A stretch of DNA of 64,000 bases, taken from positions 968,063 to 1,032,062 of the forward strand of contig CBDFKO010000002.1 of the NCBI GenBank assembly GCA_965248845.1. Direction: 5' to 3'. Shown here piece by piece: positions 903 to 58,127 of the stretch (positions are counted from its first letter, which is position 1; each line of letters opens with the position of its first letter). The notes under the pieces are model-generated. The model was not told the DNA's origin and ran no database searches. It saw only the letters and a program-made list of their open reading frames with translations. The position numbers and the translations under genes were made by a program. This DNA is from Acidobacteriota bacterium (GTDB lineage: Bacteria; Acidobacteriota; UBA890; WLXD01).

Positions 903-959
903 CCGCACCAGCAGGCCGTGGTGAAATCTGACGGATCTGGCTATGCCACGGTCTCCTAG
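903..959. repeat. Micro copy (G) of the CTAG-terminated MITE family; its terminal CTAG supplies the frr stop codon
   Basis: caccagcaggccgtggtgaaatctg ... gccacggtctcctag matches the left and right terminal motifs of the other copies. Confidence 0.5.
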
Positions 960-1513
960 ATGGTCAGGAGCTCCTGACGCTTGTTTTCGGCGACCTCGTC
1001 GATCTCGGCACAGAACTTGTCGGTCAACTCCTGTACCTGCCCATGAGCCTGGCGCTCCTCGTCCTGGGAGACCTCCTTGTCGTGCTCGAGCTTCTTGACC
1101 TGCTCGTTAGAGTCACGCCGTACTTGCCTGATCGCAGTCTTGCCGTCCTCTGCGGCGACGCCGACCAAGCGGGCCAGGTCGTGGCGCCGTTCCTCGGTGA
1201 GCTCCGGGATCGGGATACGGATCACCTGGCCGTCGTTGTTCGGGTTGAGGCCGAGATCCGACTGCAGGATCGCCTTCTCGATCGCTCCGATCGAGCTCTT
1301 GTCATAGGGCTGCAGCTGCAGCAGCTGCGGCTCGGGCGCCGCCATGTTGGCAAGCTGATTCAGCGGCGTGCTGGTGCCGTAATAGTCGACGTGGATATCG
1401 TCCAGAATCGAGATGTTGGCGCGGCCGGTCCGGATGGCGCGTAGCTCACGGGCAACGGCGTCCACCGCGGCGTGCATGCGACGCTGCGCGTCGAGCAGAG
1501 TCTCGTTGAGCAT
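956..1513 (-). CDS. frr: Ribosome recycling factor
   Basis: 185-aa ORF with full-length RRF similarity; sits in conserved frr-pyrH-tsf-rpsB synteny. Confidence 0.95.
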   Translation of the reverse strand: MLNETLLDAQRRMHAAVDAVARELRAIRTGRANISILDDIHVDYYGTSTPLNQLANMAAPEPQLLQLQPYDKSSIGAIEKAILQSDLGLNPNNDGQVIRIPIPELTEERRHDLARLVGVAAEDGKTAIRQVRRDSNEQVKKLEHDKEVSQDEERQAHGQVQELTDKFCAEIDEVAENKRQELLTI

Positions 1514-1546
1514 CTCCGACCTCCTGTTCGAGTCTTATTAGTACTC

Positions 1547-2290
1547 CTATCCGACCAACTCGGGCTCCTCGTCGACGATCAGCGAACCGATCGCTTCACC
1601 CCGTACTGCGCGCACAATATTACCGGATTCGCACATGTTGAAGATCAGGATGGGAAGCCCGTTCTCCTGGCAGTGTGTGACGGCCGCCGTATCCATGACG
1701 CGCAGCCGGCGATCCAGAACTGCTTGAAAGGTAGCGCGCTCGATGTGCTGGGCGGTGGCATCGATCTCCGGGTCTGCCGTATACAGGCCGCCTACCTTGG
1801 TCCCCTTCATCACGATGTCCGCACCGATCTCGAGTGCCCGCAGCGCCGCCGCGGTGTCGGTGGAGAAATACGGATTTCCGGTTCCGGCAGCGAAGATGAC
1901 GACGCGTTGCTTGGCCAGATGACGGATCGCCCGGCGCCGAATGAACGGCTCGGCGACCTTGTCCATCCGCAGCGCCGACATGACCCGGGTTTCGAGGCCA
2001 CGCTTCTCCAGCGCATCCTGCAACGCGAGGCTGTTCATGACGGTGGCGAGCATGCCGATGTAGTCGGCGCTCACCCGGTCGATGCCCAGGTCGTCGGCGC
2101 GGATCCCGCGGAAGATGTTGCCGCCACCGATCACGATGCCGATCGTGGTGCCGGCTGCGTGCGCCTGCGCGATCTGGTCGGCAACGCCACGGGCCACCGA
2201 CACGTCGATTCCGTAACCCTGCTCGCCCATCAGGGCCTCGCCAGAGAGCTTGAGCAGGACCCGGCGATATAGAACGGTGGCCTCGGACAT
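1547..2290 (-). CDS. pyrH: Uridylate (UMP) kinase
   Basis: 247 aa with the KLSGEAL and GGGNIFRG motifs of the amino-acid kinase family. Confidence 0.95.
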   Translation of the reverse strand: MSEATVLYRRVLLKLSGEALMGEQGYGIDVSVARGVADQIAQAHAAGTTIGIVIGGGNIFRGIRADDLGIDRVSADYIGMLATVMNSLALQDALEKRGLETRVMSALRMDKVAEPFIRRRAIRHLAKQRVVIFAAGTGNPYFSTDTAAALRALEIGADIVMKGTKVGGLYTADPEIDATAQHIERATFQAVLDRRLRVMDTAAVTHCQENGLPILIFNMCESGNIVRAVRGEAIGSLIVDEEPELVG

Positions 2291-2301
2291 CGGCGCCTCG
2301 G

Positions 2302-2934
2302 CTATTCGGCGGGATCCGCCGCAGCCGCCAGGATGGTGTCGGAATCGCCGATCGCCATGCGCGCGAATCGACGCACGACGATGTTCTCGCCGATCCGGGC
2401 CATCGCCTCGGCAAGCATGTCGCCCACCTTTTGATCAGGATCCTTGACGAAGCTCTGCTCCAACAAGCAAACCTCGGAGTAATACCGCTTCACCTTGCCG
2501 TCGACGATCTTCTCGACGATATGCTCCGGCTTGCCCGCGGCGATCGCCTGCTCCCGGTAAAGCTGCCGCTCGGATTCGAGCGACGAGCCGTCGATGTCGT
2601 CGCGGGAGACGTAGCGTGGACTGGCAGCCGCCACTTGCATCGCCAGGTCCCGCGCCAGCGCAACGAAGTCCTCGTTGCGTGCCACGAAGTCGGTCTCGCA
2701 GTCGAGCTCGAGAACGACGGCGATCTTGCCGCCCATGTGCACATAGCTTTCGATCCGCCCCTCACGGGCCGCCCGGCCGGCGCGCTTGGCTGCCTTGGCC
2801 TTGCCCCTGGTGCGTAGGATCTTGATCGCCTCGTCGATGTCTCCACTGGCCTCCTTGAGGGCGCCCTTGCAATCCATGATGCCGACGCCGGTACGCTCGC
2901 GGAGCTCCTTCACTGCTGCTGCGGTGATTTCCAT
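2302..2934 (-). CDS. tsf: Elongation factor Ts
   Basis: The MEITAAAVKELRERTG...MDCKGAL N-terminus is canonical EF-Ts. Start taken at the internal ATG (2934) rather than the ORF-track start at 2946. Confidence 0.9.
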   Translation of the reverse strand: MEITAAAVKELRERTGVGIMDCKGALKEASGDIDEAIKILRTRGKAKAAKRAGRAAREGRIESYVHMGGKIAVVLELDCETDFVARNEDFVALARDLAMQVAAASPRYVSRDDIDGSSLESERQLYREQAIAAGKPEHIVEKIVDGKVKRYYSEVCLLEQSFVKDPDQKVGDMLAEAMARIGENIVVRRFARMAIGDSDTILAAAADPAE

Positions 2935-3021
2935 CCTTTTCGTCACTTGCTGGGTTTCGGATCTAGGAGGCCTTGCGGCGCGACCGTGAAAATTCTAAAT
3001 CGCGGACCCCGGAGCCAGGGA

Positions 3022-4746: not shown

Positions 4747-6843
4747 TCAGGCTCCGGCGGCCACCTTCTCCTCTTCGGTGAGTGCCTTCAACGAGAGTCG
4801 AATTCGGTTGGGCGCCTCGATCTTCACTACCTTGACCACGATCTCGTCGCCCTCGGCAACGTGCTCGCGCATGTCCTGGACGTGCTGCTCCGAAACCTCG
4901 GAGATGTGCAGTAGGCCGTCGGTGCCCGGCAGGATCTCGACGAAGGCGCCGAAGTCCTTGATCGAGCGGACCTTGCCGCGATAGACGCGGCCGACCTCGG
5001 CCTCCTGGGTGAGATCCTCGATCATCCTCCGGGCGGCATCACAGGCATCGGTGTCGGGCGAGGCGATCTGCACGGTGCCGTCGTCCTCGACGTTGATCTT
5101 GCAGCCGGTCTCCTCCTGCATCTGCCGGATGATGCGGCCGCCGGGCCCGATGATGTCGCGGATGCGATCGACCGGGATCTTCAGGCTGATGATTTGCGGC
5201 GCCCAGCGGCTGGTCTCCGGTCGCGGCGCCGACAGAGCCTCGCTCATCTTGCGCAGGATGTGCAGCCGGTTCTCGCGCGCCTGGTTCAGCGCCGTCTCGA
5301 AGATCTCCCGGGACAGACCACTGACCTTGATGTCCATCTGCAGCGCCGTGATCCCTTGCGGCGTCCCGGCGACCTTGAAGTCCATGTCACCGTAGTGATC
5401 CTCCTCGCCGGCGATGTCCGACAGGATCGCTACCGTGTCGCCCTCCTTCATCAACCCCATGGCCACACCGGCGACCGGACCCCGGATCGGTACCCCGGCG
5501 TCCATCAGCGACAGCGTACCGCCACAGATCGTTGCCATCGACGAGGAGCCGTTCGACTCGAAGATTTCCGATACCGTGCGGATCACGTACTGCCACTCGT
5601 CCTCGGGCGGGATCACGGGCGAGAGCGCCCGCTCCGCCAGGTTCCCGTGGCCGATCTCGCGCCGGCCGGGCCCTCGCATGAAGCGCGCCTCGCCGACGCT
5701 GAAGGGCGGGAAATTGTAGTGGAGCAGGAAACGCTTCCAGTACTCCCCGTTGTACTCCTCGACCTTCTTGGCATCGTCGCTCGTGCCCAAGGTCGTGGTC
5801 ACAAAGGCCTGCGTCTCTCCGCGGGTGAACAACGCCGAGCCGTGCGCTCGGGGTGAATAGCCGACCTCGCAGGTGATCGGACGCACCTCGTCAAAGGCAC
5901 GACCGTCGAAGCGAACGCCGTCCTCGAGGGCCGACTTGCGGGTGTAGCGCTTGATCAGCTCACCGAGCGCCTCGCTCACGACTGGCCCGAGCTCCTCATC
6001 CTCGGCGACCTGCTCCTTGATGGCGGCCTTCATCTCGCCCATGCGATCGCGGCGCTCGATCTTGTCGCGGACCTGCAGCGCCTCGCTGATGGGCCCGCCG
6101 GCGAGCTCCTCGATGCGTGATACCAGAGCCGGGTCGAGCACATCGGGCACGAACTCGAACTTCTCGATGCTCGCCTGCTCGCGCAGCTTCTCCTGGACGT
6201 CGATCACGGTGTCGATAAACGGCTGTACGAACTCAAGCGCTCCGATGATCTCGTCCTCGGAGACCTCCTCGGCCCCCGCCTCCACCATCATCACGGCGTC
6301 GCGGCGGGCAGCCAGCACGAGATCGAGTCGGCTTTCCTCCATCTGGCTGCTGGTCGGGTTGAGTACGTAGTCGCCGTCGATCATGCCGATGCGAAAGGCA
6401 CCGAACGGAGTGTCGAACGGGATCCGGGACAGGTTGAGCGCGAAGGAGGCGCCCACTTTGGCCAGAACACCCGGATCGTTTTCGCCATCCGCCGACAGGA
6501 CCATGCCGATGACCTGGGTCTCGTGGCGGTATCCCTTCGGAAACAAGGGCCGGATCGTCCGGTCGATCATCCTGCAGGTCAGGATCTCCTTCTCGGAGGG
6601 CCGTCCCTCACGCTTGAAGAAGCCCCCGGGGATCTTGCCCCCCGCGTAGGTCCACTCACGGTAGTCGACAGTGAGCGGCAGGAAGGAGGCCTCACGCGGC
6701 TTGCGCGCCATCACCGCTGTCACCAGAACCTTCGTGTCGCCGCACGAGACCACAACTGCCCCGTCGGCCTGGCGGGCGATTCTGCCCATCTCGACCTCGA
6801 TGGTAATGCCGCCGAGCTCGATCGTTTCACGCACTATGCTCAT
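4747..6843 (-). CDS. pnp: Polynucleotide phosphorylase (polyribonucleotide nucleotidyltransferase)
   Basis: Two RNase PH domains, KH and S1 domains. Start taken at the internal ATG 6843 (MSIVRETIELGG); the ORF-track start at 6948 adds 35 non-conserved residues. Confidence 0.95.
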   Translation of the reverse strand: MSIVRETIELGGITIEVEMGRIARQADGAVVVSCGDTKVLVTAVMARKPREASFLPLTVDYREWTYAGGKIPGGFFKREGRPSEKEILTCRMIDRTIRPLFPKGYRHETQVIGMVLSADGENDPGVLAKVGASFALNLSRIPFDTPFGAFRIGMIDGDYVLNPTSSQMEESRLDLVLAARRDAVMMVEAGAEEVSEDEIIGALEFVQPFIDTVIDVQEKLREQASIEKFEFVPDVLDPALVSRIEELAGGPISEALQVRDKIERRDRMGEMKAAIKEQVAEDEELGPVVSEALGELIKRYTRKSALEDGVRFDGRAFDEVRPITCEVGYSPRAHGSALFTRGETQAFVTTTLGTSDDAKKVEEYNGEYWKRFLLHYNFPPFSVGEARFMRGPGRREIGHGNLAERALSPVIPPEDEWQYVIRTVSEIFESNGSSSMATICGGTLSLMDAGVPIRGPVAGVAMGLMKEGDTVAILSDIAGEEDHYGDMDFKVAGTPQGITALQMDIKVSGLSREIFETALNQARENRLHILRKMSEALSAPRPETSRWAPQIISLKIPVDRIRDIIGPGGRIIRQMQEETGCKINVEDDGTVQIASPDTDACDAARRMIEDLTQEAEVGRVYRGKVRSIKDFGAFVEILPGTDGLLHISEVSEQHVQDMREHVAEGDEIVVKVVKIEAPNRIRLSLKALTEEEKVAAGA

Positions 6844-7412: not shown

Positions 7413-8390
7413 CTAGTGTGACGCGGCGGAGTTCTCTTGTCTTATGGCTTTGGCGAGGATCTGGTCGGCGGACTTGAGCCAAAGGAAGGGCTCGGAGCCG
7501 TCGTTCCAGGCTCGGATGAAGCGGTGGATGGCCTTGATCAGGACATCGACGCTGCTGAAGCTGCCGCGCCGGACGGCCTGCGAGGTGAGGATGCCGAACC
7601 AGGTCTCCACCTGATTCATCCAGGAAGCGGAAGTGGGCGTGAAGTGACGCGTGAACCGCGGGTGTTGCTCGAACCAGGCCTCGACCTTGGGCTGGGTGTG
7701 GGTGCCGTAGTTGTCCAGCACCAGGTGGATCTCGCCCTCGGGGTAGGTGCGGTCGATCAAGCGTAGGAAGCGAAGAAACTCCTGGTGGCGGTGCCGCTGC
7801 ATGCAGGTGCCCAGGATCTCGGCGGTGGCTAGGTTCAACGCCGCGAACAGCGTCGTGGTGCCGTGGCGTCTGTAATCGTGGGTGCAGCGCTCTGGATCGC
7901 CGCGGCGCATGGGCAACATCGGCTGAGTCCGGTCCAGAGCCTGGATCTGGCTCTTCTCGTCCACGCACAGCACCAGCGCCCCCTGGGGCGGGTGCAGGTA
8001 CAGCCCCACGATGTCGGTGACCTTGTCCTGCAGGAGTGGATCGGCGGAGTACTTGAAGGTCTCGGTGCGATGGGGCTGCAGGCCGTTGCGCCGCCAGATC
8101 CGCAGGATCGTCGAAGGGCTCGCATCGACCTGTTTGGCGAGCCGCTGTGCGCTCCAATGGGTTCGGCTCGGAGGCCTCTCCAGGGTTGCGGCGATGATCT
8201 TGGCTTCCCGCACGGCGTCGTAGGTGCGCACACGACCAGAGCGCGGCTCGTCACCGAGATCCTCGATGCCCTGCTTGGCTGCGCGAGCGCGCCACATGCC
8301 CACGGTCTGTCGGGAGGTCTCGAGGCGCTCGGCGATCTGCTGGTTCTGCAGCCCCTGCTCGGCAAGCAGGATGATGTGGGCTCGGAACAC
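7413..8390 (-). CDS. IS630-family DDE transposase (catalytic part; GTG start)
   Basis: 325 aa with a DDE_3-like core ([12 protein letters not shown]...[10 protein letters not shown]...WMNQVE). About 55% identical to the second IS630 transposase at 56910..58001. Confidence 0.85.
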   Translation of the reverse strand: MFRAHIILLAEQGLQNQQIAERLETSRQTVGMWRARAAKQGIEDLGDEPRSGRVRTYDAVREAKIIAATLERPPSRTHWSAQRLAKQVDASPSTILRIWRRNGLQPHRTETFKYSADPLLQDKVTDIVGLYLHPPQGALVLCVDEKSQIQALDRTQPMLPMRRGDPERCTHDYRRHGTTTLFAALNLATAEILGTCMQRHRHQEFLRFLRLIDRTYPEGEIHLVLDNYGTHTQPKVEAWFEQHPRFTRHFTPTSASWMNQVETWFGILTSQAVRRGSFSSVDVLIKAIHRFIRAWNDGSEPFLWLKSADQILAKAIRQENSAASH

Positions 8391-8573
8391 CTGCCGCTGC
8401 TGTGAGCTCGGCGCGTCGATTACTCCCTGGAGCCGCTGCCCGCTGCTGCCCGGTCAACGAAATCTCCGGTGCTACCCTGGGCATCGTGGCCTCCTGTCCC
8501 GACAAGTTTACTGTCGAGACAAGGAAGTCTTAATATGCCATATAAGTCAAGCTAATTACGACGCGTTACACTA
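7414..8573. mobile_element. IS630-family insertion sequence (copy 1, ~1.16 kb) inserted into a CTAG between truB and rpsO, with TA duplication
   Basis: Flanks are tacTAgtgtgacgcgg on the left and cgcgttacacTAgcgcc on the right. Terminal inverted repeat gtgtgacgcg / gtgtaacgcg. Reconstructed empty site is aCTAGc. Confidence 0.8.
8391..8505 (-). other. N-terminal HTH segment of the IS630 copy-1 transposase, encoded in a different frame from the catalytic part (frameshift)
   Basis: MPRVAPEISLTGQQRAAAPGSNRRAELTAAAGV aligns to the N-terminus of copy 2 ([17 protein letters not shown]...[13 protein letters not shown]). The catalytic ORF lies in the -1 frame relative to it. Confidence 0.45.
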
Positions 8574-8670
8574 GCGCCGCGTCGTCGTCGAGCCCATTCG
8601 ACCCTTTGGCGAGCCGGCGGGCGCATACGTGATCGGCCTCGAATCCCGTCGCGACGAGGCCGCGACGGCG

Positions 8671-10959: not shown

Positions 10960-10963
10960 GGCT

Positions 10964-11157
10964 AGCAGGCCTTCGTGAAGCGCTGATGGATCTCGCGAGT
11001 ACGTCCTGCGGGCGAGGGCAAGGAGCGCCGACGAGTCGATGCGACAACATCGTCGAGGCGGCGCGACACCGCCACCATCCCGCTCGAACCCTCCGGGCAG
11101 CCGCCTGTACTCCTTGGCGGCGCAACCCGACCCATCACACTTTCACCACGGCCTGCT
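10964..11157. repeat. MITE-like element, copy A (~194 bp), CTAG at both ends with imperfect ~25-bp terminal inverted repeats; its left end supplies the rbfA SD-like GAAGG
   Basis: Left end CTAGcaggccttcgtgaagcgctgatgg; right end ccatcacactttcaccacggcctgCTAG. Internal 40-bp block cgccaccatcccgctcgaaccctccgggcagccgcc is shared with the 18302-18469 element. Confidence 0.65.
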
Positions 11158-11198
11158 AGCGGCCTAACCAGACCCATGAGAGCCTCACCAAGATCCTG

Positions 11199-11480
11199 CT
11201 AGAGGTACTCTGTCTCGACGCGCGTCAGCAGCGCCTCGGCGCTGCGCTCGACCTCGTCGACCAGCTTTTCGAACAACCCCTCCAACCGTGGCCGGCTGTT
11301 GGAAACCGAGACCGCCGCGATACACGAGCGCTGCCACAGGTCCTGGTAGGCAACCTCTGCCACCGCCACATTGAAGCGTGACGTCAGGCGGTGCAGGAGT
11401 CTCTTGATCACGCTGCGCTTGTCCTTGAGGCTGCGACAAGCGGGCAAGTGCAACTCTAGGGTGCAGGCCCCGATAACCAT
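11199..11480 (-). CDS. DUF503 (YlxP-like) protein of the infB operon
   Basis: MVIGACTLELHLPACRSLKDKRSVIKRLL is typical of DUF503; lies between infB and rbfA. Start at ATG 11480; stop TAG lies inside a CTAG. Confidence 0.8.
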   Translation of the reverse strand: MVIGACTLELHLPACRSLKDKRSVIKRLLHRLTSRFNVAVAEVAYQDLWQRSCIAAVSVSNSRPRLEGLFEKLVDEVERSAEALLTRVETEYL

Positions 11481-11502
11481 CACACTTTCACTACGGCCTC
11501 CT
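11457..11502. repeat. Miniature copy (B, ~46 bp) of the MITE family spanning the infB stop and the DUF503 start
   Basis: CTAGggtgcaggcc..ccatcacactttcactacggcctcCTAG; 27 of 29 nt identical to the copy-A right end. It encodes the last residues (SLSRRP) and TAG stop of infB, and the ATG of DUF503. Confidence 0.6.
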
Positions 11503-13641
11503 AGAGAGGCTCGGGCGGATCTCCTTGAGGACGAAGAACTCAATCATGTCGCCGACCTTGACATCGTTGAAGTTCTCGAGCGCGATACCGCACTCGTAAC
11601 CCTGGCCCACCTCGGCGACGTCGTCCTTGAAGCGTCGCAGCGATCTGACCTGCCCCTCGTAGACGATCCTCGAGTCCCGCACCAGACGCACCTTGGCGGC
11701 GCGTGTCACCTTGCCCCCGGTCACGTAGCAGCCGGCGATGGAGCCGATCCGGGGAATGCGGAAAGTCTCGCGCACCTCGGCCTGTCCGAGCTCCTCGTCC
11801 TCGAAGGTGGGGTCGAGCTTACCCACCATCGCCTGCTTGACATCGTCGATGAGCTGGTAAATGACCGTGTAGAGCCGAAGATCGACGCCGGCGCTGGCTG
11901 CGATATCCGCCACGCCACGCTCCGGGCGCACGTTGAATCCCACGATGATCGCCTCGGACGCCGAGGCCAGCAACACATCGTGCTCCGAGACGCCACCGAC
12001 CGCCGCGCGGATGATCTGCACCTCGACTTTGTCGCCTGACAGCTTGCCCAGCGCGTCACGCAGCGTCTCGGTTGAGCCCTGGGTGTCGGCCCTGAGCACG
12101 ACCGAAAGCTTCACCCGACCACCGGCTTCGATGCGCGCGTGCAGATCGGCGAGCGTCAGGCGCGTGCCACCGGCCAATGATTCGCGCCGCTGTTTGTCCC
12201 GCCGCAGTTCGGCCACCTTGCGCGCCAACGACGCTTGCTCGACGACCTGGAAGGAGTCGCCGGCTCCCGGCACGCCGGAGAAGCCGAGCACCTCGACCGC
12301 CGTCGCCGGTCCGGCCTCCTTCACGGGGTTCCCGTAGGAGTCGAACATGGCACGGACCTTGGCGCTCTCGGCGCCCGCGACCAGGCTGTCGGCTACGGCG
12401 AGCGTTCCTGCCTGGACCAGCACCGTCGCGACCGGGCCGCGTCGCCGGTCGAGCTCGGCCTCGAGCACGACGCCATGCGCCGCGATCTTGGGGTTCGCAC
12501 GCAACTCCAAGAGCTCCGACGACAGAATGATCATCTCGAGCAGCCCATCGAGGTTCTCTTTGGTCTTGGCCGAGACCGCAACGCAGACGGTATCGCCGCC
12601 CCAATCCTCCGGCGTCAAGTCACGGTCGACCAGCTGCTGCTTGGCTCGGTCGACGTTGGCCTCGGGACGATCGATCTTGTTGACCGCCACGATGATCGGC
12701 ACGTTGGCCGCGCGGGCGTGGTCGATGGCTTCCACGGTCTGCGGCATGACTCCGTCGTCGGCGGCGAGCACCAGGACCACCAGATCGGTGACCTGTGCGC
12801 CGCGGGCTCGCATTCGCGTGAAGGCCTCGTGGCCCGGGGTATCGATGAAGACGATTCGGTTGCCGTTCCATTCCACCTCGGACGCGCCGATGTGCTGCGT
12901 GATCCCGCCCGCCTCGCGCGCCACAACGTTTGTCTGCCGGATCGAATCGAGCAGATGGGTCTTGCCATGGTCGACGTGCCCCATGATGGTCACGACGGGC
13001 GCTCGGGGTTCGAGATCGTCGCTGCTACCGGTCTCGATTTCGCCGAGCAGGACCTCGTCCCGCCCCAACAACTGCAGGGCCACTCCGTGCTCGGCAGCGA
13101 TCTCCACGGCCACATCGGCATCCAGCGCCTGGTTCACGTTGGCCATGGCACCGCGGCCCATCAATTCGCGGATGATCTCCGCGGGGCTGATTCCCATGGC
13201 CTCGGCCAGTTGCCCGACCGTAGCACCCTCCTCGACCGCTACCGCGCGAGCCGGTGCCGCGGCTGCGGCAGGCTCCGGCTCGACCTCCTGCTCCGGCTCG
13301 GGCTCGGGCTCTGCGTCGGCTGCTGCCCCGGGCTCGGCCTCGGCCTCGGCCTCGAGTTCTCCTTCGGGCTCGGGCTCGGGCTCAACTTCGGGCTCGGGCT
13401 CGGGCCCTACTTCGGGCTCGGCCTCTGCCTCAGGCTCGATCTCAATCTCAGCTTCAGGCCCGGCTACCAGGGGCTCGGGGCCTTGCCCCGATTCTCCGGC
13501 AAGCGCCTGCCGCACGCGAGCCGCTTCCTCCTCGGACACCGAGTTGGCATGGCTCTTGACCGCTACGCCCAGCTCGTTGAGGGCCTGGAGGACCACCTTG
13601 CTCTCGACGTCCAGTTCCCGGGCGATCTCGTAAACCCGCAT
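11491..13641 (-). CDS. infB: Translation initiation factor IF-2
   Basis: 716 aa with the GTPase domain ([17 protein letters not shown]) and IF2 C-terminal domains. Short N-terminal region rich in EP/EA repeats. Confidence 0.95.
13254..13445. repeat. Tandem GC-rich coding repeats (ctcggg/ctcggc units) encoding the [12 protein letters not shown] tract at the IF-2 N-terminus
   Basis: Visible tandem hexamer/dodecamer periodicity inside infB. Confidence 0.6.
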
Positions 13642-13720
13642 TCCTGTGAATCCTTCCGCTTCCTGTTGCCGCTAACTACGCGTTCCGCTCGATGTTTCAG
13701 GCTTCGATGCCGAAGCGCTC

Positions 13721-15313
13721 TCAGAATCGTCCATCGTCCGAGTCCTCACCCAGCGCCGGCTCCTGGTCAGCCGCAGCGTCGGGCTCCGCAACCTCGGCGG
13801 CCCCCGATTCATCGGCCTCGGTGACCTCGGGCTCCGCAACCTCGGTGGCTTGCGGCTCGGCGGGCTCCGGCTCGGCGACCTCGGTAACCTCCGGCTCGGC
13901 GGCCTCGGCGGGCTCCAGCTCGGCAACCTCCGTGGTCTCCGGCTCGGCAGCCTCGGTAACCTCCGGCTCAGCAGCCTCGGTGTCCTCCGGTTCCACGGGC
14001 GCGATGGCGACCTCGGGGGCCTCCTGCGTCCCCTCGATCAGGTCACGCGCTTGCTGATAGATCTTCAACGCCGACTTGGGTCCGATACCGGCCACCGCGA
14101 GGAGCGCATCCTCACCGGCCAGCACGATCGAGCGTGCCGTCTCGAAGCCGGCCTCGCGCAAGGCGGCGGCTGCGGTCGCGCCCACCGCCTCTAGCTGCTC
14201 GACACCCGGTGCCGCCGAGGTCGGCGCGGCTACCGGCTTTTTCTCCGTATCTGCGGCCGGCTGTCCGGCGCCGCCGACATCGATCTTGCAGCCGAGCAGC
14301 TTGCCGGCCAAGCGCACGTTCTGCCCGCGCTTGCCGATGGCAAGGGAAAGTTGGTCCTCGTTCACGATGACCTGAAGATGCTGTGCGGCCTCTCCGGTCA
14401 CTTCGTCGACTACGTCGACCTCCTTCACATGATTGACCCTTGCCGGCTTGAGCGCGTTGATCGCGAACTGGAAGCGATCCGGCGACCACTCAACGATGTC
14501 GATCTTCTCGCCGCGCAGCTCACGGATGATGGCCTGGACCCGAGAGCCCCGCATGCCGACGCACGCGCCGACGGGGTCGACGTCCGGCTCGTTGGACTGC
14601 ACCGCCACCTTGGCGCGGTCACCGCCTTCGCGCACGGCGCCCTTGATCACGACCGTCTGGTCGTAGATCTCGGGGACCTCCATCTCGAACAGCCGCTTGA
14701 GCAACTCGGGGCTGTTGCGCGACACTACGACCATCGGTCCGCGCGTGGCCTGCAGCACCTCGATGATGACCAGCCGAATGCGGTCGCCGATGTTGTAGTG
14801 TTCCGCCCGCGATTGCTCGCGCCGCGGCAAGATGGCCTCGGTTCGGCCCAGATCGACCATCATGTCACCGCGCTCGAAGCGCTTGACGATCCCGGTCAGG
14901 AGCTCGCCGACCCGGTCGACATACTCCACATATATATTGTCGCGCTCAGCATCGCGGACTTTCTGGAAAATGACCTGCCGGGCCGCATGGGCCGCGATGC
15001 GCCCGAGCTGATCGGTGGACATCGAGCGCCGTAGCTCGTCACCCACTTTCGGGTCGTCCATTCCCTCGGCTCGCGCCTCCTCGACGGTCAGCTCCGCAAG
15101 CGGGTCTTCGACCACTTCGACGACACGTTTCACCGCGGCCAGCTCGACCTCGCCGGTCTCAGGGTTCAGCGAAGCCTCGAGGTAGTCCTCGGTCCCATAG
15201 AACTTCTGGGCCGCTACCGCCATGGCCTCTTCGACCGCCTCGATGATGACCTGCGGCTCGATGTTTTTCTCACGACCGATCTGCTCGATCGTCTGGAGTA
15301 GCATCTGGGCCAT
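13721..15313 (-). CDS. nusA: Transcription termination/antitermination factor NusA with an acidic repeat C-terminal extension
   Basis: NusA N-terminal, S1 and two KH domains, then (EPEVTEAA)-like octapeptide repeats at the C-terminus. Confidence 0.95.
   Translation of the reverse strand: MAQMLLQTIEQIGREKNIEPQVIIEAVEEAMAVAAQKFYGTEDYLEASLNPETGEVELAAVKRVVEVVEDPLAELTVEEARAEGMDDPKVGDELRRSMSTDQLGRIAAHAARQVIFQKVRDAERDNIYVEYVDRVGELLTGIVKRFERGDMMVDLGRTEAILPRREQSRAEHYNIGDRIRLVIIEVLQATRGPMVVVSRNSPELLKRLFEMEVPEIYDQTVVIKGAVREGGDRAKVAVQSNEPDVDPVGACVGMRGSRVQAIIRELRGEKIDIVEWSPDRFQFAINALKPARVNHVKEVDVVDEVTGEAAQHLQVIVNEDQLSLAIGKRGQNVRLAGKLLGCKIDVGGAGQPAADTEKKPVAAPTSAAPGVEQLEAVGATAAAALREAGFETARSIVLAGEDALLAVAGIGPKSALKIYQQARDLIEGTQEAPEVAIAPVEPEDTEAAEPEVTEAAEPETTEVAELEPAEAAEPEVTEVAEPEPAEPQATEVAEPEVTEADESGAAEVAEPDAAADQEPALGEDSDDGRF
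13790..13995. repeat. Tandem ~24-bp coding repeats at the nusA 3' end (acidic octapeptide repeats)
   Basis: Repeating cctcggtaacctccggctcggc(a/g)g units. Confidence 0.6.
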
Positions 15314-15813: not shown

Positions 15814-16050
15814 TGATGTCGTTCTGGCCGGTGCTGGCACCGTCTTGCTCCTCTGGACAAAAAAAAGCGGGCACGAGGGCCCACTTCGCTCGCAGTACCC
15901 GAATTGCCGCAAACTCTACCAAGAACTCCGGTCCGCTTCAACGAGCCCGAGCTAGCAGGCCGTGGTAATTCTCTGACGGCGTTTGCGTCGCCGTACAGCT
16001 TCATTCAAGATCGCGGTCCGCCCCACAACCTGCCTCCTGCCGGAGTGCCT

Positions 16051-17522: not shown

Positions 17523-18302
17523 GTGAGCACGGCCGAGCCTCCGGGCCTGCCGGAGACAGCTTCGGCTGCCGGCCGGCGAGAGAGTCTGCCCGAGATGTCC
17601 CTCATGGATCATCTCACCGAGCTGCGCGGGCGTTTGCTGGTCTCCGTGATCGCCGTCGTGCTCGGCGCCATCGGCGCCTGGTTCTACGCCGACGAGCTGT
17701 ACCGGCTGCTGACCCGACCCGTCGTGGAAATCTTGCCGGAACAGGACAATCGGCTGGCGTTCCTGTCGTTGACCGAGCCCTTCGTCCTCTACCTCAAGGT
17801 GGCCGGCCTGGCTGGGCTGTTCGCGGCCTCACCGGTCGTCATCTACCAGGGTTGGATGTTCGTGGCCCCCGGTCTGTACCGAAACGAGAAGCAGCACGCT
17901 TTGCCCGTCGTAGCTGCCTCCGCCGCGTGCTTTTTCGCCGGCGGCGCTTTCGGTTACTTCGTGCTGTTCCCGGTGATGGCCAACTTCTTCCTCGATCTCG
18001 GCTCCGACTTTCGCCAGGTTCTTACCGTGAACCGTCTCTTCGGCTTCCTCGTGCGAACGCTGCTGGGGTGCGCCCTCGTGTTCGAATGGCCCATCGTGGT
18101 CTTCTTTCTGGCACGCCTGGGGATCCTGACGGCCGGGGCAATGTGGAGCGGTCTCGGCTACGCCATCGTCGCGATCTTCGTCATTGCCGCCGTGGTCACG
18201 CCCACCCCCGACGCGCCCACACAGATTATCCTGGCCACGCCGATGCTATTGCTGTACTTGCTCGGTATCGGGATCGCCTGGTTGGTGCAGCCGCGCGACT
18301 AG
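17523..18302 (+). CDS. tatC: Sec-independent protein translocase TatC
   Basis: Six-TM TatC fold with the HLTELRGRL motif. Start is either GTG 17523 or ATG 17595; stop TAG lies inside the CTAG at 18299-18302. Confidence 0.9.
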   Translation: MSTAEPPGLPETASAAGRRESLPEMSLMDHLTELRGRLLVSVIAVVLGAIGAWFYADELYRLLTRPVVEILPEQDNRLAFLSLTEPFVLYLKVAGLAGLFAASPVVIYQGWMFVAPGLYRNEKQHALPVVAASAACFFAGGAFGYFVLFPVMANFFLDLGSDFRQVLTVNRLFGFLVRTLLGCALVFEWPIVVFFLARLGILTAGAMWSGLGYAIVAIFVIAAVVTPTPDAPTQIILATPMLLLYLLGIGIAWLVQPRD

Positions 18303-18469
18303 TGCTCCTGTACACAAGTACGGTGACGTTTGTTGGAGCGGGATGGTGGCGGATGCCAGGCGCACCGACGAGGCGATGTGAGCGCATCGTCGAGCGAGGT
18401 GCAACGCCGCAGACGCCACCATCCCGCTCCAACCCTCCGGGCAGCCGCCGTACTTGTGTACAGGAGCAC
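18302..18469. repeat. 168-bp nested-palindrome MITE with 22-bp perfect terminal inverted repeats that resemble IS630 ends
   Basis: Terminal repeats gtgctcctgtacacaagtacgg / ccgtacttgtgtacaggagcac, similar to the IS630 copy-2 end TAgtctcctgtaacag. Inner 20-bp inverted repeat gttggagcgggatggtggcg / cgccaccatcccgctccaac. Left flank is the CTAG of the tatC stop. Shares a ~65-bp internal block with MITE A. Confidence 0.65.
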
Positions 18470-18478
18470 TGGTGTAAG

Positions 18479-25326: not shown

Positions 25327-25506
25327 GCGGCGACTATAGCAGGCCGTGCTGAGGCGCTGATGCGCCTCGGCTGCCCGGCCGGGACTCAGCTGCAGACGAA
25401 TCGCTCACAACGTACATTTTCCTCTCTGGTGCGAATCCGAAACGACCCGTCACGACCCCGGCCACCCGCATTACTCGAGCGGGCGGGCCGAATTGCGGGC
25501 GGCGCC

Positions 25507-28341: not shown

Positions 28342-28384
28342 GAGGGTCTCCCAGGAGGCCGTGGTGAAAGTGCGATGGGTCTGG

Positions 28385-40328: not shown

Positions 40329-40372
40329 CCCGCTAGAGTACCCGATCGTCAGCGCACGAAACGGCCGGGTAC

Positions 40373-40534
40373 GAGCAGGCCATGGCGAGGTGTGATGCGT
40401 CGGGGCAAGTAGGTTCTACGGCCGAGGGCAAGGCTCGGCAGAGCCGGCGCAGGCACATCGTCGAGAGCGTGCCGCGAGGCATCTGCGCCCCTGGCGGCGT
40501 AACCAGCCCATCACACTTTCACCACGGCCTGGTA
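40373..40534. repeat. MITE-like element, copy C (~160 bp), in the divergent promoter region between the methyltransferase gene and the glycosyltransferase cluster
   Basis: Left end gagcaggccatggcgaggtgtgatgcg; right end cccatcacactttcaccacggcctggTAG; interior homologous to copy A (cggccgagggcaagg, acatcgtcgag). Confidence 0.6.
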
Positions 40535-40600
40535 GGAGACCGTGCTAGAGTTCAGCCTTCTTGGGGCGCCCCTGCTCCGCCTCCCATCTGCCCGCTCCCG

Positions 40601-43697: not shown

Positions 43698-44845
43698 TGC
43701 GGGTGCTGATCGACGCGCGCAAGCTCGGCGACTTCGGCATCGGCAGGTACATCCGAGGACTCGTGGGGGCCGCGGCCGCGCTACGACCGAGCTGGGAGTT
43801 CTGCGTGATGTCGCGACCCGAGAACAGCGACATCGCCACCTGGGCTGCCGGGAACGTACGCGTCGTTCTCGACTCCACCGGCGACTACTCGCTGGGCGAG
43901 ATGGTGGCCGGGAGTCGTTGCGCCCGGAGGATCGGAGCGGACCTGTTTCACGCGCCGCACTATGTCTTCCCGCGGCGCCTCCCCTGCCCCGGCATCGTGA
44001 CGATCCACGACTGCATCCACCTACGGTACCCTGGCCATCTGCCGCGTCCGCTCGGCCTGCTACCTCGCCGCCTCAGCCTGCTGTATGCGCAGCGCATGAT
44101 GCGCTTCGCAACGCGCACGGCGAGCCACGTGATCGCCGTGTCGGAAGCCACGCGAGCCGATATCGTCGATCGGCTTGGCGTCGGCGCCACCCGGGTCACG
44201 GCAATCCTCAACGGAGGTGGGACGGACGCGCTGGCGGCGCATGTAGCCGACCGGGCCGACTCCGACGACAGGAACGCGGCTCTGCCCGGTCTCTACGTGC
44301 TGTTCGTGGGCAACCCGAAGCCGCACAAGAACCTATCGGGTCTGCTGAGTGCCTTCGCCGGCCTGGCCGCGGACTATCCGGTTCTGCAGCTCGTGTTGGT
44401 CGGGCCTCTGGGGGCGCTCGCCGATGCGGTGGCAGCGCATCCGGCATCGACCGACCTGGCCGCTCGGATCCACAACTTGGGCCTCCTGTCCGAGCACGAG
44501 CTGCGTTGCGTCTACCGACAGGCGACACTGCAGTGCATGCCGTCGCTGTACGAGGGTTTCGGTCTGCCGGCGCTAGAGGCCATGGCTGCGGGGACGCCGG
44601 TAGTCGCATCCGATGCTGGTGGTCTGCCCGAGGTCGTCGGCGACGCCGGCGTCTTGGTCGAGCCGGGTAGTGTGGAGGCACTGACCGAGGCCCTGGCTCA
44701 CCTCCTGAGCGACGAGACCCGCCGCCGAGAGCTGGCCCGTCGGGGGCGGGAGCGCGCCTCCCGATTCAGCTGGCAACGCGCCGCCGAAGCAACCCTCGAC
44801 ATCTACGAGCTGGTCACCCTCCAGAAGGTCGCGGTGAAAATCTGA
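43697..44845 (+). CDS. Glycosyltransferase family 4
   Basis: YEGFGLPALEAMAAGTPVVAS; start overlaps the upstream stop. Confidence 0.85.
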   Translation: MRVLIDARKLGDFGIGRYIRGLVGAAAALRPSWEFCVMSRPENSDIATWAAGNVRVVLDSTGDYSLGEMVAGSRCARRIGADLFHAPHYVFPRRLPCPGIVTIHDCIHLRYPGHLPRPLGLLPRRLSLLYAQRMMRFATRTASHVIAVSEATRADIVDRLGVGATRVTAILNGGGTDALAAHVADRADSDDRNAALPGLYVLFVGNPKPHKNLSGLLSAFAGLAADYPVLQLVLVGPLGALADAVAAHPASTDLAARIHNLGLLSEHELRCVYRQATLQCMPSLYEGFGLPALEAMAAGTPVVASDAGGLPEVVGDAGVLVEPGSVEALTEALAHLLSDETRRRELARRGRERASRFSWQRAAEATLDIYELVTLQKVAVKI

Positions 44846-44861
44846 TGGGTCTGATCGGGCT

Positions 44862-54966: not shown

Positions 54967-56064
<1,098 letters not shown>

Positions 56065-56137
56065 GGGACCTCCCGCGGGACGGAGCAGGAATGGGCGAAC
56101 AGACGGGCGTCGGGCCGACGCGACGCCTCAAGTTACC

Positions 56138-56174
56138 ATAGCAGGCTGTGGTGCAAGTGTGATGGGCCTGGTAG
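56138..56174. repeat. Micro copy (~37 bp) of the MITE family in the gcvT leader
   Basis: aTAGcaggctgtggtgcaagtgtgatgggcctggTAG, i.e. left terminal motif plus the right tip. Confidence 0.5.
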
Positions 56175-56231
56175 TTCTGCCAACGGCGCCTCACGGCGCC
56201 TTCCACCGCGCGGAAGAGGCCGCAGAAAAGC

Positions 56232-56870
56232 CTACCGGACCCGCTCCCAGCCGCTGGTAGCGGCGCGGAATCGCCACACGGCGACACGGCCGGTCGCCCC
56301 ATACAAGCGCACCGCCGCAGCGTCCCCGTAAGCGTTGTGGAGATAGACCGTACCGCTACTCGTCGACCCTTCAGGGGCAACGCTCAGCCGATCGAGACGG
56401 CCGAACGCGACGCCATCCGCGGGCCGGGCGCCGGCCAGCGACGGCACCCCGGCCGGTAGACCCGCCACGATCCCGGGAAAGTCGCGTTCGAGACGAAACA
56501 CTCGACCCGTCGGCCTATCGATGTTCCGACGCAGGTCGTCCGATCGGAGGCCGTCCCCATCGCCATCCTCGAGCTCGTGCCATTCCAGACCGTCCACCGT
56601 GTAGAACTGAAGGCCGAAGTGCCGGCCGTGGGCGCTCGCTCTCGCTTGCAAGACGGCGACCTGCGTCGCAATCGCGCCGCAGGCCGACAGGAGCTGTTGG
56701 CTCTGGCGCCATCGGACCCAGGCGGGAGCAGCCGTCTGCACGAGTAGCCCTACGATCGCGAGGCACACGGTCAACTCGAGCAGTGAGACGCCCGCTGCCC
56801 GGAAGGCTACGCCGCCAGCGGCGCGTCCTTGACGGTGGCACCGTAACCAGACCCACCACACTTTCACCAC
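56232..56870 (-). CDS. Orphan prepilin-type N-terminal cleavage/methylation domain protein (GspH/FimT-like minor pseudopilin); 5' end lies within a MITE copy
   Basis: AAG|VSLLELTVCLAIVGLL prepilin motif with Glu at +5; GspH-like C-terminus. No other T2SS/T4P genes nearby. The GTG start falls inside the repeat caccacactttcacc. Confidence 0.55.
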   Translation of the reverse strand: MVKVWWVWLRCHRQGRAAGGVAFRAAGVSLLELTVCLAIVGLLVQTAAPAWVRWRQSQQLLSACGAIATQVAVLQARASAHGRHFGLQFYTVDGLEWHELEDGDGDGLRSDDLRRNIDRPTGRVFRLERDFPGIVAGLPAGVPSLAGARPADGVAFGRLDRLSVAPEGSTSSGTVYLHNAYGDAAAVRLYGATGRVAVWRFRAATSGWERVR

Positions 56871-56879
56871 GGTCTCCTA
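56850..56879. repeat. MITE-family right-end copy (D) immediately left of IS630 copy 2
   Basis: gacccaccacactttcaccacggtctccTA. Confidence 0.6.
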
Positions 56880-58080
56880 GTCTCCTGTAACAGTGGTTCG
56901 CAGCATAAGTCATGAGGCGTGTTGGTCGAGAGTGCGCTGTGCGAACCGGGCGATGGGAGCCAGGATCTCGTCGGCACTCTTGCACCACACGAACGGCTCG
57001 GGGGTCTCGTTGTGCGCATCGATGAACTCCCAGATAGCTGCCACCAGCGCTGCGACACTGCAATGAGATCCGCGGCGGATCTGCTTGTTGGTCAGCTCGG
57101 CGAACCAGCGCTCGACCTGGTTGAGCCACGAGGCATAGGTAGGGGTGAAGTGCAGGTGGAAGCGTGGCCGTTTGGCCAGCCAGGTGTGGATCATCGGGCT
57201 CTTGTGGGTGCCGTAGTTGTCCAGGACCAGATGCACCTGCAGTTGGGCAGGCACCTGCTCATCGATCATGTCCAGGAACTTGCGGAACTCCACCGAGCGA
57301 TGCCGGCGGTGAGTCTGAGCCAGAACGGTTCCCGTCTTGATGTCCAAGGCGGCGAACAACGATGTCGTTCCATGGCGTTGGTAGTCATGCGTGCGCCGCT
57401 CCATCTGGCCGGGCCGCATGGGTAGCAACGGCTGTGTCCGATCCAGTGCCTGGATCTGGCTCTTTTCGTCCACGCACAGCACCACCGCGTGCTCGGGCGG
57501 GTTGACATACAACCCGACGACGTCGCGCACCTTGTCCACCAGTAACGGGTCGGGCGAGAGCTTGAACGTCTCGGTGCGGTGTGGCTTGAGACCAAAGGCA
57601 CGCCAGATCCGGCTGATTGTGGCGTGGCTCAAGCCGGTCGCCTTGGCCATCGACCGGGTGGACCAGTGGGTGGCCCCACGCGGGGTACTCTCCAAGGTGC
57701 GGATGATCACCTGTTCGACCTGGGCGTCCGTGATCTTGCGCGGCGCTCCGGGTCGCGGTTCGTCGTACAGGCCATCGAGACGATCCGACACGAAGCGTGC
57801 CCGCCATTTGCCCACGGTGCTCGGTGACAGCTGCAAGCGCTTGGCCACGGCCTTGTTGTCGTGTCCCTGCGCGCAGGCCAGGACGATGCGCGCGCGGCGT
57901 GCCGGGGCGGGGGCGGTGCGGGATCGATGCGCCAACGAGTTCAGGTGTGCCTCCTCCTGTGGCGTCAGCGTTAAGGGAGCCTTGGGTCGACCGGTGCGCA
58001 TGCGACAATCTCCTGTGCTCAGCTACAGGTTCAACATATGCACACTATAACTTATATCAGTTATTTCTGATACAGGAGAC
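56880..58080. mobile_element. IS630-family insertion sequence (copy 2, 1201 bp) inserted at the TA of a CTAG between two MITE arms
   Basis: TA duplications at 56878-56879 and 58081-58082. Terminal inverted repeat gtctcctgtaacag / gtctcctgtatcag with AT-rich subterminal sequence. Confidence 0.85.
56910..58001 (-). CDS. IS630-family DDE transposase (full length, N-terminal HTH plus DDE core)
   Basis: 363 aa; aligns with the copy-1 transposase over its whole length. Confidence 0.9.
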
Positions 58081-58127
58081 TAGCGGCCCGTGGTGAAAGT
58101 GTGATTAAGCGGCCCGCCGCTTGGTAG
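58081..58127. repeat. MITE-family left-end/micro copy (E) immediately right of IS630 copy 2
   Basis: TAgcggcccgtggtgaaagtgtgatt...cttggTAG. Together with D it forms a 16-bp perfect palindrome, cacactttcaccacgg / ccgtggtgaaagtgtg, centred on the TA that was duplicated. Confidence 0.6.

Follow-up and report, generated by a model that had tools for sequence, protein, structure and literature searches.

A CTAG-bordered MITE family, probably of IS630/Tc1 style, in Acidobacteriota

In the window, a 64,000-nucleotide stretch of DNA from an Acidobacteriota bacterium, it was found that a set of short repeats represents a genuine, previously undescribed MITE family of IS630/Tc1 style (family 1). The repeats are probably the copies and decay products of a non-autonomous IS630/Tc1-style MITE served in trans by a DDE transposase. 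As copies and decayed fragments of a small non-coding transposon residing at the TA in CTAG, they would make up a new family within a common and familiar class of mobile DNA. The unusual points are the compensatory pairing of the arms, an interior that recurs in families whose TIRs differ, and the lack of a parent element. The features of the window are as follows; those marked new had been missed by the sequence-only reading, an earlier description of the same DNA.

908..959, plus strand: mini copy; left, CCAG then CAGGCCGTGGTGAAA; right, CCACGGTCTC then CTAG
7417..8570, minus strand: IS-B, IS630-family insertion sequence (new)
10962..11159, plus strand: 198-bp copy bordered by CTAG at either end and lacking about 86 central bases
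11160..11202, plus strand: probable remnant of a decayed right end, tandem to the preceding copy, ending CCTGCTAG; weak
11475..11504, plus strand: single right end, CCATCACACTTTCACTACGGCCTCCTAG
15952..15968, plus strand: left-end stub, CTAG then CAGGCCGTGGTAA (new)
18299..18472, plus strand: family-2 MITE, 22-bp perfect TIR GTGCTCCTGTACACAAGTACGG, flanks CTAG and CTGG (new)
25336..25363, plus strand: possible decayed left end, ATAG then CAGGCCGTGCTGAGGCGCTGATGC; weak (new)
28351..28384, minus strand: single end, CCAG then GAGGCCGTGGTGAAAGTGCGATGGGTCTGG (new)
40372..40535, plus strand: 164-bp copy, flanks decayed to CGAG and GTAG, about 117 central bases deleted
44821..44856, plus strand: doubtful TIR1-like stretch, profile E = 0.002 (new)
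56138..56174, plus strand: 37-bp mini copy upstream of gcvT, ATAG then CAGGCTGTGGTGCAAGTGTGATGGGCCTG then GTAG
56837..56880, plus strand: right-end fragment, terminal CTAG at 56877-56880
56881..58079, minus strand: IS-A, IS630-family insertion sequence (new)
58080..58127, plus strand: mini copy, CTAG then CGGCCCGTGGTGAAAGTGTGAT...GCTTG then GTAG

The repeat family first proposed from the letters of the window does exist. A terminal-motif 20-mer, CCATCACACTTTCACCACGG, has seven matches in the window with up to three mismatches (11132+, 11477+, 28359-, 40508+, 56146-, 56853+ and 58088-), against a chance expectation of zero: none of 100 dinucleotide-preserving shuffles contained any match. A profile made from full-length relatives recovers these places and weaker ones, and the window holds nine firm and three weak pieces, all of one family. 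The coordinates given earlier were correct within a few bases. The supposed two-ended mini copy at 11457-11502 has a TIR only at about 11475-11504, its left part being the 5′ end of the DUF503 gene. At 56850-56879, a family-1 piece was rightly seen, but it is a right-end fragment with the wider extent listed above. The remnant reported at 11159-11202 is plausible but weak, agreeing with the consensus end in 22 of 37 positions.

Family-1 termini occur at more than 200 loci, in at least 12 Acidobacteriota genomes and in metagenomes (more than 101 loci in 12 species genomes, a lower bound, and 108 metagenome loci). The family is multi-copy, at non-homologous loci. Copies within a genome are 95-97% identical, with a maximum of 99.6%, against about 73% between distant genomes, and the TIR is nearly invariant. 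By this comparison, family 1 has amplified recently.

In the relatives, the intact element is 279-281 bp long (23 of 43 pairs measure 279 bp, and in a further count 18 of 22 measure 279-280 bp). The copies of 165-195 bp once regarded as full length are internal-deletion derivatives of 198 and 164 bp; both have a decayed left TIR and a perfect right one. The two terminal motifs were correctly described as inverted repeats, and the element has inverted termini of about 34 bp (TIR1), 5′-(G)CAGGCCGTGGTGAAAGTGTG(G/A)TGGGTCTGG. The interior consists of two palindromic modules of about 105 bp, with no ORF and no coding capacity. The complementarity of the arms is kept by compensatory changes in 26 of 94 pairs, which none of 500 shuffles reached; a plain parasite model does not predict this. 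A single TIR1 makes a poor hairpin, its stem being limited to 6 bp and its loop measuring 17 nt. Folding has no strand bias, the forward strand being stabler in 14 of 35 copies, and an Rfam search of the repeat gave no match.

Several pieces touch the ends of genes. The stop codon of frr (minus strand) is the CTA at 956-958, within the first mini copy. The 198-bp copy has the DUF503 gene on one side and rbfA on the other; the rbfA ATG begins 2 nt past the CTAG, and the stop codon of the DUF503 gene is the CTA at 11199-11201, inside the tandem remnant. The infB ORF ends in the 11475..11504 piece (stop codon 11491-11493), the inner edge of which also contains the DUF503 ATG (11480-11478). The 25336..25363 stub is located just upstream of the start of a 1187-aa gene. 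The 28351..28384 end fills the gap from the priA stop codon (28385-28387) to the ribosome-binding site of the next gene. The 164-bp copy separates two divergently oriented genes, one for a homocysteine methyltransferase and the other for a GT4 glycosyltransferase, and the doubtful 44821..44856 stretch is at the 3′ end of a coding region. The family-2 MITE lies between the tatC and recJ stop codons, and the stop codon of the IS-B transposase is the flanking TAG.

The intact element is bordered by (C)TA(G) at either end. Among 164 ends, the flank is C in 91%, T in 90%, A in 98% and G in 96%; conservation ends exactly at the CTAG, and one base beyond it the composition is random. CTAG is present on both sides in 32 of 43 element pairs. 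Twelve pairs are asymmetric only at the outermost flank base, with a constant TA (TTAG/CTAG, GTAG/CTAG, CTAG/CTAA, CTAG/CTAT, ATAG/CTAG three times, CTAG/CTAC twice, CTAG/CTAA twice, and TTAG/CTAA), and no element pair has matching non-CTAG 4-mers on both sides. These statistics fit the duplication of TA in an nTAn target, usually CTAG, and not a 4-bp duplication. TA was presumably duplicated at insertion, and a TAG...CTA belonging to the element may also fit; since no clean empty site for family 1 was found among the loci compared, sequence alone cannot separate the two. As had been remarked, CTAG is depleted: the window has 42 sites, where base composition predicts 196 and a Markov estimate 91. 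Twelve to thirteen of the 42 are at the ends of these elements, bearing out the remark that the elements mark and create these scarce sites. In 37% of cases an end lies directly next to a TAG that terminates an ORF of 100 codons or more; for other CTAG sites the figure is 22%.

The two IS630-family elements have the same flanks. IS-B has CTAG at 7413-7416 and 8571-8574, imperfect TIRs of about 34 bp (TGTGACGCGG...) and a minus-strand transposase ORF at 7413-8390. IS-A, with the TIR TCTCCTGTA(A/T)CAG, sits exactly in a CTAG made by the two family-1 ends that enclose it, has CTAG on both sides, and encodes a 363-aa transposase on the minus strand (56910-58001). Both transposases have DDE_3 and HTH domains, and the source genome contains at least 7 variants of the IS-A and at least 23 of the IS-B transposase. 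With the twelve pairs that vary only outside a constant TA, these CTAG flanks support the Tc1/IS630-type nonautonomous reading made at the outset. IS-A and IS-B thus resemble family 1 in their identical CTAG flanks, in TIRs of about 30-35 bp and in sharing its genome. However, their TIR sequences show no resemblance to TIR1, so neither is an evident partner of family 1. The IS-A TIR (TCTCCTGTAACAG) rather resembles those of MITE families 2 and 3. These two families have TIRs unrelated to TIR1 and an interior common with family 1; for family 2, positions 18414-18449 are 97% identical to 11070-11105.

Family-1 copies are also seen within other repeats, nested or as tandems. They lie within the internal-loop CTAG of another copy at two loci (L054 and L063) and inside a family-3 MITE at L019. 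The proposed check for empty sites in relatives succeeded for the sister family, not for family 1: the family-3 element of L019, with its nested family-1 copy, is absent from the orthologous L099 site, which has one CTAG followed by the same right flank. Insertion/absence polymorphism is suggested at the pyrH-tsf spacer, where L169 and L033 differ from the window. L003 and L077 are one orthologous insertion, differently truncated. Many mini copies retain both tips. The gcvT mini copy is orthologous to a longer truncated copy at the metagenome locus L204, which has the same ATAG flank and flanking genes only 68% identical to those around gcvT. A TIR well conserved in such an old orthologous remnant is likewise not predicted by a plain parasite model.

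An autonomous parent was sought in several ways. No inverted TIR1 pair 450-4000 bp apart encloses a transposase; the sole such pair (L077, 1282-2652) has a three-domain L-PSP (RidA-like) gene between a left and a right TIR1 end, both bordered by CTAG. No IS630 homologue was found in about 1.6 Mb around 209 TIR1 loci, and a targeted search of metagenomes for TIR1 suitably spaced from the DNYGTH motif of the clade gave nothing. Neither an IS5-type or other transposase nor a recurrent small ORF (open frames of at least 150 codons) was seen beside TIR1 ends. Because no autonomous TIR1 element was found, I infer, and do not demonstrate, the identity of the transposase.

Could the repeats be REP/REPIN-like or TIRtron-type, moved as single-stranded hairpins by a tyrosine (HUH/Y1, RAYT or TIRYT) transposase with nTAG as the cleavage tetranucleotide? 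RAYT-like genes flanked by long TIRs, and small families of those TIRs, have been described in Acidobacteria (PMC3733652). GTAG is the tag of REPs and also the final tetranucleotide of several window copies; the strong palindrome with its compensatory pairing, a separate subfamily in each genome and the lack of a visible multi-copy parent also favour this idea. It is nevertheless unlikely. The two outer ends carry the nTAG tag as mirror images, as DDE elements that duplicate TA do, and the IS630 elements of the window have exactly the same flanks. The poor single-TIR hairpin, the balanced folding of the two strands and the absence of a recurrent small ORF argue against it too, and the GGGGWSAS motif reported for many such TIRs (PMC3733652) is absent from family-1 TIRs. 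If the MITE belonged instead to a DDE family like the IS5 group, with a 4-bp CTAG (YTAR) target duplication, the pairs with CTAG on both sides would be explained equally well, and no IS630 element with TIR1 was found. This reading is about as unlikely, since a 4-bp duplication predicts identical 4-mers, but the outermost base differs in 12 of 12 clean non-CTAG cases, and no transposase of that kind accompanies the TIR1 ends. It is very improbable that the motif belongs to the host, as a conserved structured RNA or a site for regulation or protein binding that is kept near genes: several window copies are just upstream of start codons or ribosome-binding sites, the gcvT copy is kept in a diverged relative and the pairing is conserved, but orientation to the neighbouring genes is inconsistent, these genes are functionally unrelated, positions are non-orthologous in different genomes, near-identity within a genome spans 279 bp, some copies lie inside other repeats, folding favours neither strand, and neither an Rfam match nor a promoter-like site at the gcvT copy was found. 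Multi-copy, non-coding repeats with inverted termini, sharp CTAG borders, near-identical copies and nesting speak for mobile DNA, as first supposed.

For the non-autonomous IS630/Tc1-style MITE, the following course is proposed. A Tc1/IS630-family DDE transposase supplied in trans would move family 1 by cut-and-paste, binding both TIRs and then excising the element, which would integrate at TA, with a strong preference for CTAG, and duplicate the TA. Each insertion would leave CTAG at both borders, and these rare sites may become targets in turn; thus tandem and nested copies, and IS-A between two family-1 ends, may have arisen. Many insertions would hit the C-TAG stop codon of a gene and regenerate it. 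Copies would then decay by internal deletions at short repeats, caused perhaps by interrupted gap repair after excision or by slippage across the hairpin, into copies of 164-199 bp with one module, mini copies of 37-57 bp with both tips, and single ends.

Like REPIN/REP-RAYT and TIRtron/TIRYT systems (PMC3733652), family 1 is palindromic and intergenic, carries an nTAG tag, forms genome-specific subfamilies, and has single units and doublets with no multi-copy autonomous parent. Unlike them, its tag is mirrored at both outer ends, its single unit makes no hairpin, its flanks match those of the DDE (IS630) elements in the window, and no Y1 transposase gene was seen beside it. The L077 arrangement of TIR1 ends and CTAG around the L-PSP gene is a single case that recalls another class of element. 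Mobile insertion cassettes are passenger genes bounded by TIRs without a transposase. In L077, a resident gene may simply have two end fragments of independent origin next to it; its orthologue L088 is without the right end, and synteny breaks at that point. Known bacterial MITEs derived from IS630/Tc1-mariner elements include the IS630-Spn1-related RUP, the cyanobacterial Nezha and the TA-duplicating Correia elements. Family 1 differs from these in its host, an uncultured Acidobacteriota, in its two palindromic modules with compensatory pairing, in an interior common to families 1, 2 and 3 despite unrelated TIRs, and in that no IS630 member with matching TIRs was found. Like them, it is short and non-coding, with long TIRs and TA at both borders, is present in high copy number in intergenic spacers, can form a hairpin over the whole element, and shares its genome with IS630-family elements. 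Its preference for CTAG is that of IS630 itself, which, according to Tenzen & Ohtsubo 1991 as cited in PMC2170065, inserts at the TA within CTAG; ISY100 duplicates TA (PMC2170065).

The sequence-only reading had described two terminal motifs for family 1, the CTAG-flanked MITE-like repeat, and reading every position confirmed them. The left end is CTAG-CAGGCC-GTGGTGAAAGTGTGATGG, and the right end reads as the reverse complement of the left, then CTAG. In the window, whose G+C content is 63-71%, the 20-mer CCATCACACTTTCACCACGG has seven matches with up to three mismatches, both strands together. None of 100 dinucleotide-preserving shuffles of the window gave any match to this 20-mer. The terminal inverted repeat (TIR) of family 1 is called TIR1 here. 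A profile made from full-length relatives finds all the claimed window copies and also the following pieces.

28351-28384, minus strand: single end of family 1
15952-15968: stub of family 1
25336-25363: stub of family 1
44821-44856: doubtful piece of family 1

The window holds 9-12 family-1 pieces, and the derivatives of the element in it are 37-198 bp long. Parts of the earlier description had to be corrected. Copies of 165-195 bp had been regarded as full-length; however, the 198-bp copy (10962-11159) and the 164-bp copy (40372-40535) are short of full length, lacking about 86 and about 117 central positions, respectively, when aligned to the profile. The left motif assigned to 11457-11474 was rejected, as it is coding sequence of the DUF503 gene. 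In both long copies, the right TIR is perfect over 20 nt, and the left TIR (10962-10995 and 40376-40405) is far more decayed, with about 75% identity. One of these decayed ends immediately precedes the start codon of rbfA, where a weakening of the hairpin may have been favoured. The whole window contains no Rfam 15 family at the gathering threshold, and a tRNA search was negative too. Separately, coding DNA at 13240-14020 contains extended arrays of imperfect repeats of 12 and 24 nt (GGCTCGGGCTC...). These cover 5′ sequence of infB and 3′ sequence of the gene next upstream, and probably code for low-complexity linkers.

How widespread is family 1, and what does an intact copy look like? I scanned one GTDB genome per species in 8-kb blocks with a degenerate 20-mer. 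At least 101 blocks match, and the matches listed are all from 12 Acidobacteriota (or unclassified) MAGs. A metagenome scan added 108 further TIR1 loci, and TIR1 was absent from viral contigs. Inverted end pairs are mostly 279-281 bp apart from CTAG to CTAG (exactly 279 bp in 23 of 43 end pairs at the GTDB loci, and 279-280 bp in 18 of 22 at the metagenome loci). At 164 ends, the flank is C in 91%, T in 90%, A in 98%, and G in 96%, and the next base outward is random. Thus, the element border is sharp. The conserved end of about 34 bp reads CAGGCCGTGGTGAAAGTGTG(G/A)TGGGTCTGG, and subfamilies diverge further in. In 35 full-length copies from six genomes, this TIR is nearly invariant and its helix is 98% paired. 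The element is small and has no coding capacity, its interior being palindromic and not an ORF. Above the TIR stem stand two hairpins of about 105 bp (modules A and B), or one long hairpin in some subfamilies. Folding energies are -160 to -207 kcal/mol. The 37-bp mini copy gives -11.8 kcal/mol, and the fold of a single TIR is limited to a stem of 6 bp and a loop of 17 nt. I found neither a paper with this TIR sequence nor one linking MITEs, IS630, and Acidobacteria.

The pairing is kept by compensatory changes. In the 35 full-length copies, 97.7% of the cells are paired, and 26 of 94 pairs have changes on both sides, versus 9.9 ± 1.9 in shuffles; none of 500 shuffles reaches 26. When the partners were slid as a control, the count of two-sided changes was 4-9. 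As an example, both TIRs switch together between subfamilies at columns 25 and 265 of alignment A3 (G:C in 27 copies and A:T in five). The interior arms have 24 further compensatory pairs. Such changes may come from selection, gene conversion, or fold-back resynthesis. Neither strand of family 1 folds better than the other. Thus, the palindrome is a DNA-level property, or at least not that of a strand-specific RNA, and a strand-specific RNA function is ruled against by the absence of folding asymmetry.

The window has two insertion sequences (IS) of the IS630 family.

7417-8570, minus strand: IS-B, with imperfect TIRs of about 34 bp (TGTGACGCGG...) and CTAG on each side
56881-58079, minus strand: IS-A, with the TIR TCTCCTGTAACAG... 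and CTAG on each side

Their two ORFs have DDE_3 and HTH domains and are 55% identical to each other. On the source 4.36-Mb contig, transposase variants number at least seven for IS-A and at least 23 for IS-B (at least 30 together). Thus, the host genome has both the enzyme family and the target habit. On its two sides, IS-A directly adjoins family-1 ends, a right one at 56837-56880 and a left one at 58080-58127. Neither IS-A nor IS-B has TIRs like TIR1. In the IS-B region (7413-8574), the transposase ORF is open through the whole right TIR and stops at the TAG within the flanking CTAG. Since this TAG consists of the target TA plus G, the CTAG preference also supplies the stop codon.

A parent element was sought in several ways. 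Among 209 loci, there was no inverted TIR1 pair at an IS-like distance with a transposase. The only locus with a TIR1 pair at such a distance, L077, encloses an L-PSP gene. This three-domain L-PSP/RidA-like gene (1282-2652) lies between a family-1 left end and a family-1 right end, with CTAG at each. It looks like a cassette, but may instead be flanked by two separate end fragments. By tblastn with both window transposases at all loci, no IS630 homologue was found in about 1.6 Mb around the TIR1 copies. None of 140 IS630 homologues has a TIR1-encoded C-terminus. The DNYGTH motif of the clade is conserved in 126 of 133 homologues, and the metagenome collection was scanned for TIR1 at 256-316 nt from DNYGTH codons, a geometry calibrated on IS-A and IS-B; this parent scan found nothing. 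The ORFs beside single TIR1 ends are those of ordinary genes (histidine kinases, LipB, sulfatase, and others). The solo ends of L057 and L094 are alike for a few bases and not homologous further in. In summary, no autonomous element with these TIRs turned up in the window, in about 1.6 Mb of related loci, or in the targeted metagenome scan; a matching autonomous element is the one piece missing from a derivation from IS630, on limited sampling.

I consider it improbable that family 1 represents long-lived, vertically inherited repeats kept by a dedicated low-copy transposase in at least 12 Acidobacteriota species. The enzyme would perhaps be domesticated and not IS-borne, the repeats would be a Tc1/IS630-type counterpart of REPIN-RAYT, and the modules would have been selected for hairpin or cruciform formation. 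If this were true, family 1 would be something other than a side product of a multi-copy insertion sequence. A minor rival is that the copies are repeats of the REP/RAYT or TIRtron-TIRYT kind (PMC3733652). However, the tag stands as a mirror image at both outer ends and not at one, and a TIR on its own does not make a hairpin. A Y1 gene was not seen: among ORFs of at least 150 codons, none recurs beside TIR1 ends, and no Y1 gene is enclosed by a TIR1 pair.

The flanks bear on the class of the enzyme. Nearly all family-1 copies have TA, within CTAG, on both sides. A CTAG on both sides is compatible with a 4-bp duplication or with a TA duplication plus G...C element tips. In all 12 clean non-CTAG pairs, the outermost base alone differs, on one or both sides; 12 is the upper count of independent cases, since some metagenome loci may be resamplings of one locus.

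GTDB loci, asymmetric pairs: TTAG/CTAG, GTAG/CTAG, CTAG/CTAA, CTAG/CTAT
Metagenome loci, asymmetric pairs: ATAG/CTAG (three), CTAG/CTAC (two), CTAG/CTAA (two), TTAG/CTAA (one)

No pair has an identical non-CTAG 4-mer on both sides. This, together with the asymmetry of the pairs, contradicts an IS5-like duplication of 4 bp (YTAR). Judged by these flanks, the pattern would fit an nTAn target in which TA is repeated, as in IS630 and its relatives. The TA in CTAG is preferred by IS630, according to a passage of PMC2170065 that cites Tenzen & Ohtsubo (1991). The Tc1/IS630-type reading made from the sequence was essentially right, with TA invariant at the borders and the outermost base variable and asymmetric; the parent element is missing.

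In every genome, the loci of family-1 copies are unrelated, as are the genes beside them, and the flanks have nothing in common beyond CTAG. The full-length copies within a genome are 95-97% identical (99.6% at most). That family 1 is a fixed regulatory site is contradicted by this placement, the inconsistent orientation, and the within-genome identity. Copies from distant genomes agree at about 73% over the whole element, and their TIR is almost invariant. A near-invariant TIR on a diverged element is what selection for recognition by a transposase would produce. In L054 and L063, the CTAG in the internal loop of one copy is followed by a second, full family-1 copy. Upstream of pyrH, the spacer holds a family-1 copy in L169 and a mosaic of about 900 bp in L033; in the window it is empty. 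Searches with joined flanks for an empty site of family 1 gave nested cases only, and the syntenic pairs L003/L067, L070/L087, and L077/L088 showed truncations or synteny breaks and no clean empty site.

Two sister MITE families have other TIRs.

18299-18472: family 2, between the convergent tatC and recJ, on the tatC stop codon, with the perfect 22-bp TIR GTGCTCCTGTACACAAGTACGG
L019, 6744-7306: family 3
L049, 7697-8000: family 3
L033, 3500-3570: family 3
L099, 7750-7770: empty site

Family 3 also occurs in L076, and its TIR (TGGCCTGTAACAGATGATCG...) is close to that of IS-A. The flanks of family 2 are CTAG and CTGG. Its TIR is unrelated to TIR1 and resembles the IS-A TIR. The interior of family 2 shows homology to family 1 (for instance, 97% identity to 11070-11105 over 36 nt; profile E-value, 9e-12), and the family-3 interior is common to families 1 and 2. 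The central block GGCGATG-loop-CATCGTCGAGGAGG..AACGCCGC is found in all three families. Recombination between nested copies is the only explanation offered for one interior under unrelated heads. A full family-1 copy lies within the loop CTAG of the family-3 MITE in L019. This composite is absent at the orthologous L099 site, which has one CTAG and then the same right flank, with 10 left bases unmatched. By this comparison, L099 is an empty site for family 3, not for family 1. Other neighbours were also seen. At L033 3828-4310 (minus strand), a truncated IS110-family transposase with only the Transposase_20 domain is fused to a family-1 right arm, and a 99.4% identical copy exists in L049 (6933-7745), a separate block from the same genome. 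A large paralogous family of proteins of 800-980 amino acids recurs near family-1 copies in several genomes (L005, L012, L032, L059, L072, L075, L084, L090, and L096).

Many short copies consist of a complete TIR and the last 0-6 bases of the other tip, followed by CTAG (L007, L061, L100, and window 56138-56174). In the commonest short form, the junction is in GG(T/C)CTG, which one TIR has at its inner edge and the other at its outer tip. In L003 and L077, whose adjacent gene is 96% identical, one insertion has been truncated in two different ways, and each junction has a short repeat. Short copies may arise by deletion at short repeats, either while the gap left by excision is repaired or through slippage across the hairpin. 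The 56138-56174 mini copy, upstream of gcvT, shares an unusual ATAG flank with a longer truncated copy in L204 (about 5863-5960). The TIR of this orthologous insertion is about 92% conserved, and the flanking genes are only 68% identical. Since the ATAG flank is shared despite this gene identity, some insertions are old. Neither a promoter-like site nor a riboswitch was detected at the gcvT copy, and the idea of a hybrid promoter was dropped, there being no promoter-like site.

CTAG had been said to be scarce and marked by these elements. Indeed, the window has 42 CTAG sites versus 91-196 expected, and about 30% of them are at ends of these elements. A sizeable part of the rare CTAG sites is due to family 1. 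A TAG closing an ORF of at least 100 codons abuts 37% of the ends, versus 22% of other CTAG sites. Three window genes, frr, the DUF503 gene, and tatC, have the flanking CTA/TAG as their stop codon. The infB ORF runs four codons into a single TIR (11475-11504) and stops at a TAG that results from a C-to-T change. The terminal residues SRRP of IF-2 and the stop codon come from this TIR. The inner edge of this TIR also holds the ATG of the DUF503 gene, 11 nt past the infB stop codon. The elements reshape tight operon junctions, as with this TIR fragment at the end of the IF-2 gene, abutting the next start codon.

Family-1 repeats break assemblies and create false ORFs, and a defined repeat family (consensus, 34-bp TIR, and TA/CTAG target) is useful for annotating Acidobacteriota genomes and MAGs. 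The missing partner transposase, the co-evolving arms, and the one interior under different TIRs are worth following. Family 1 has the structure that defines a MITE. It is a real repeat and a new family of a familiar kind, which leaves the picture of bacterial MITEs unchanged.
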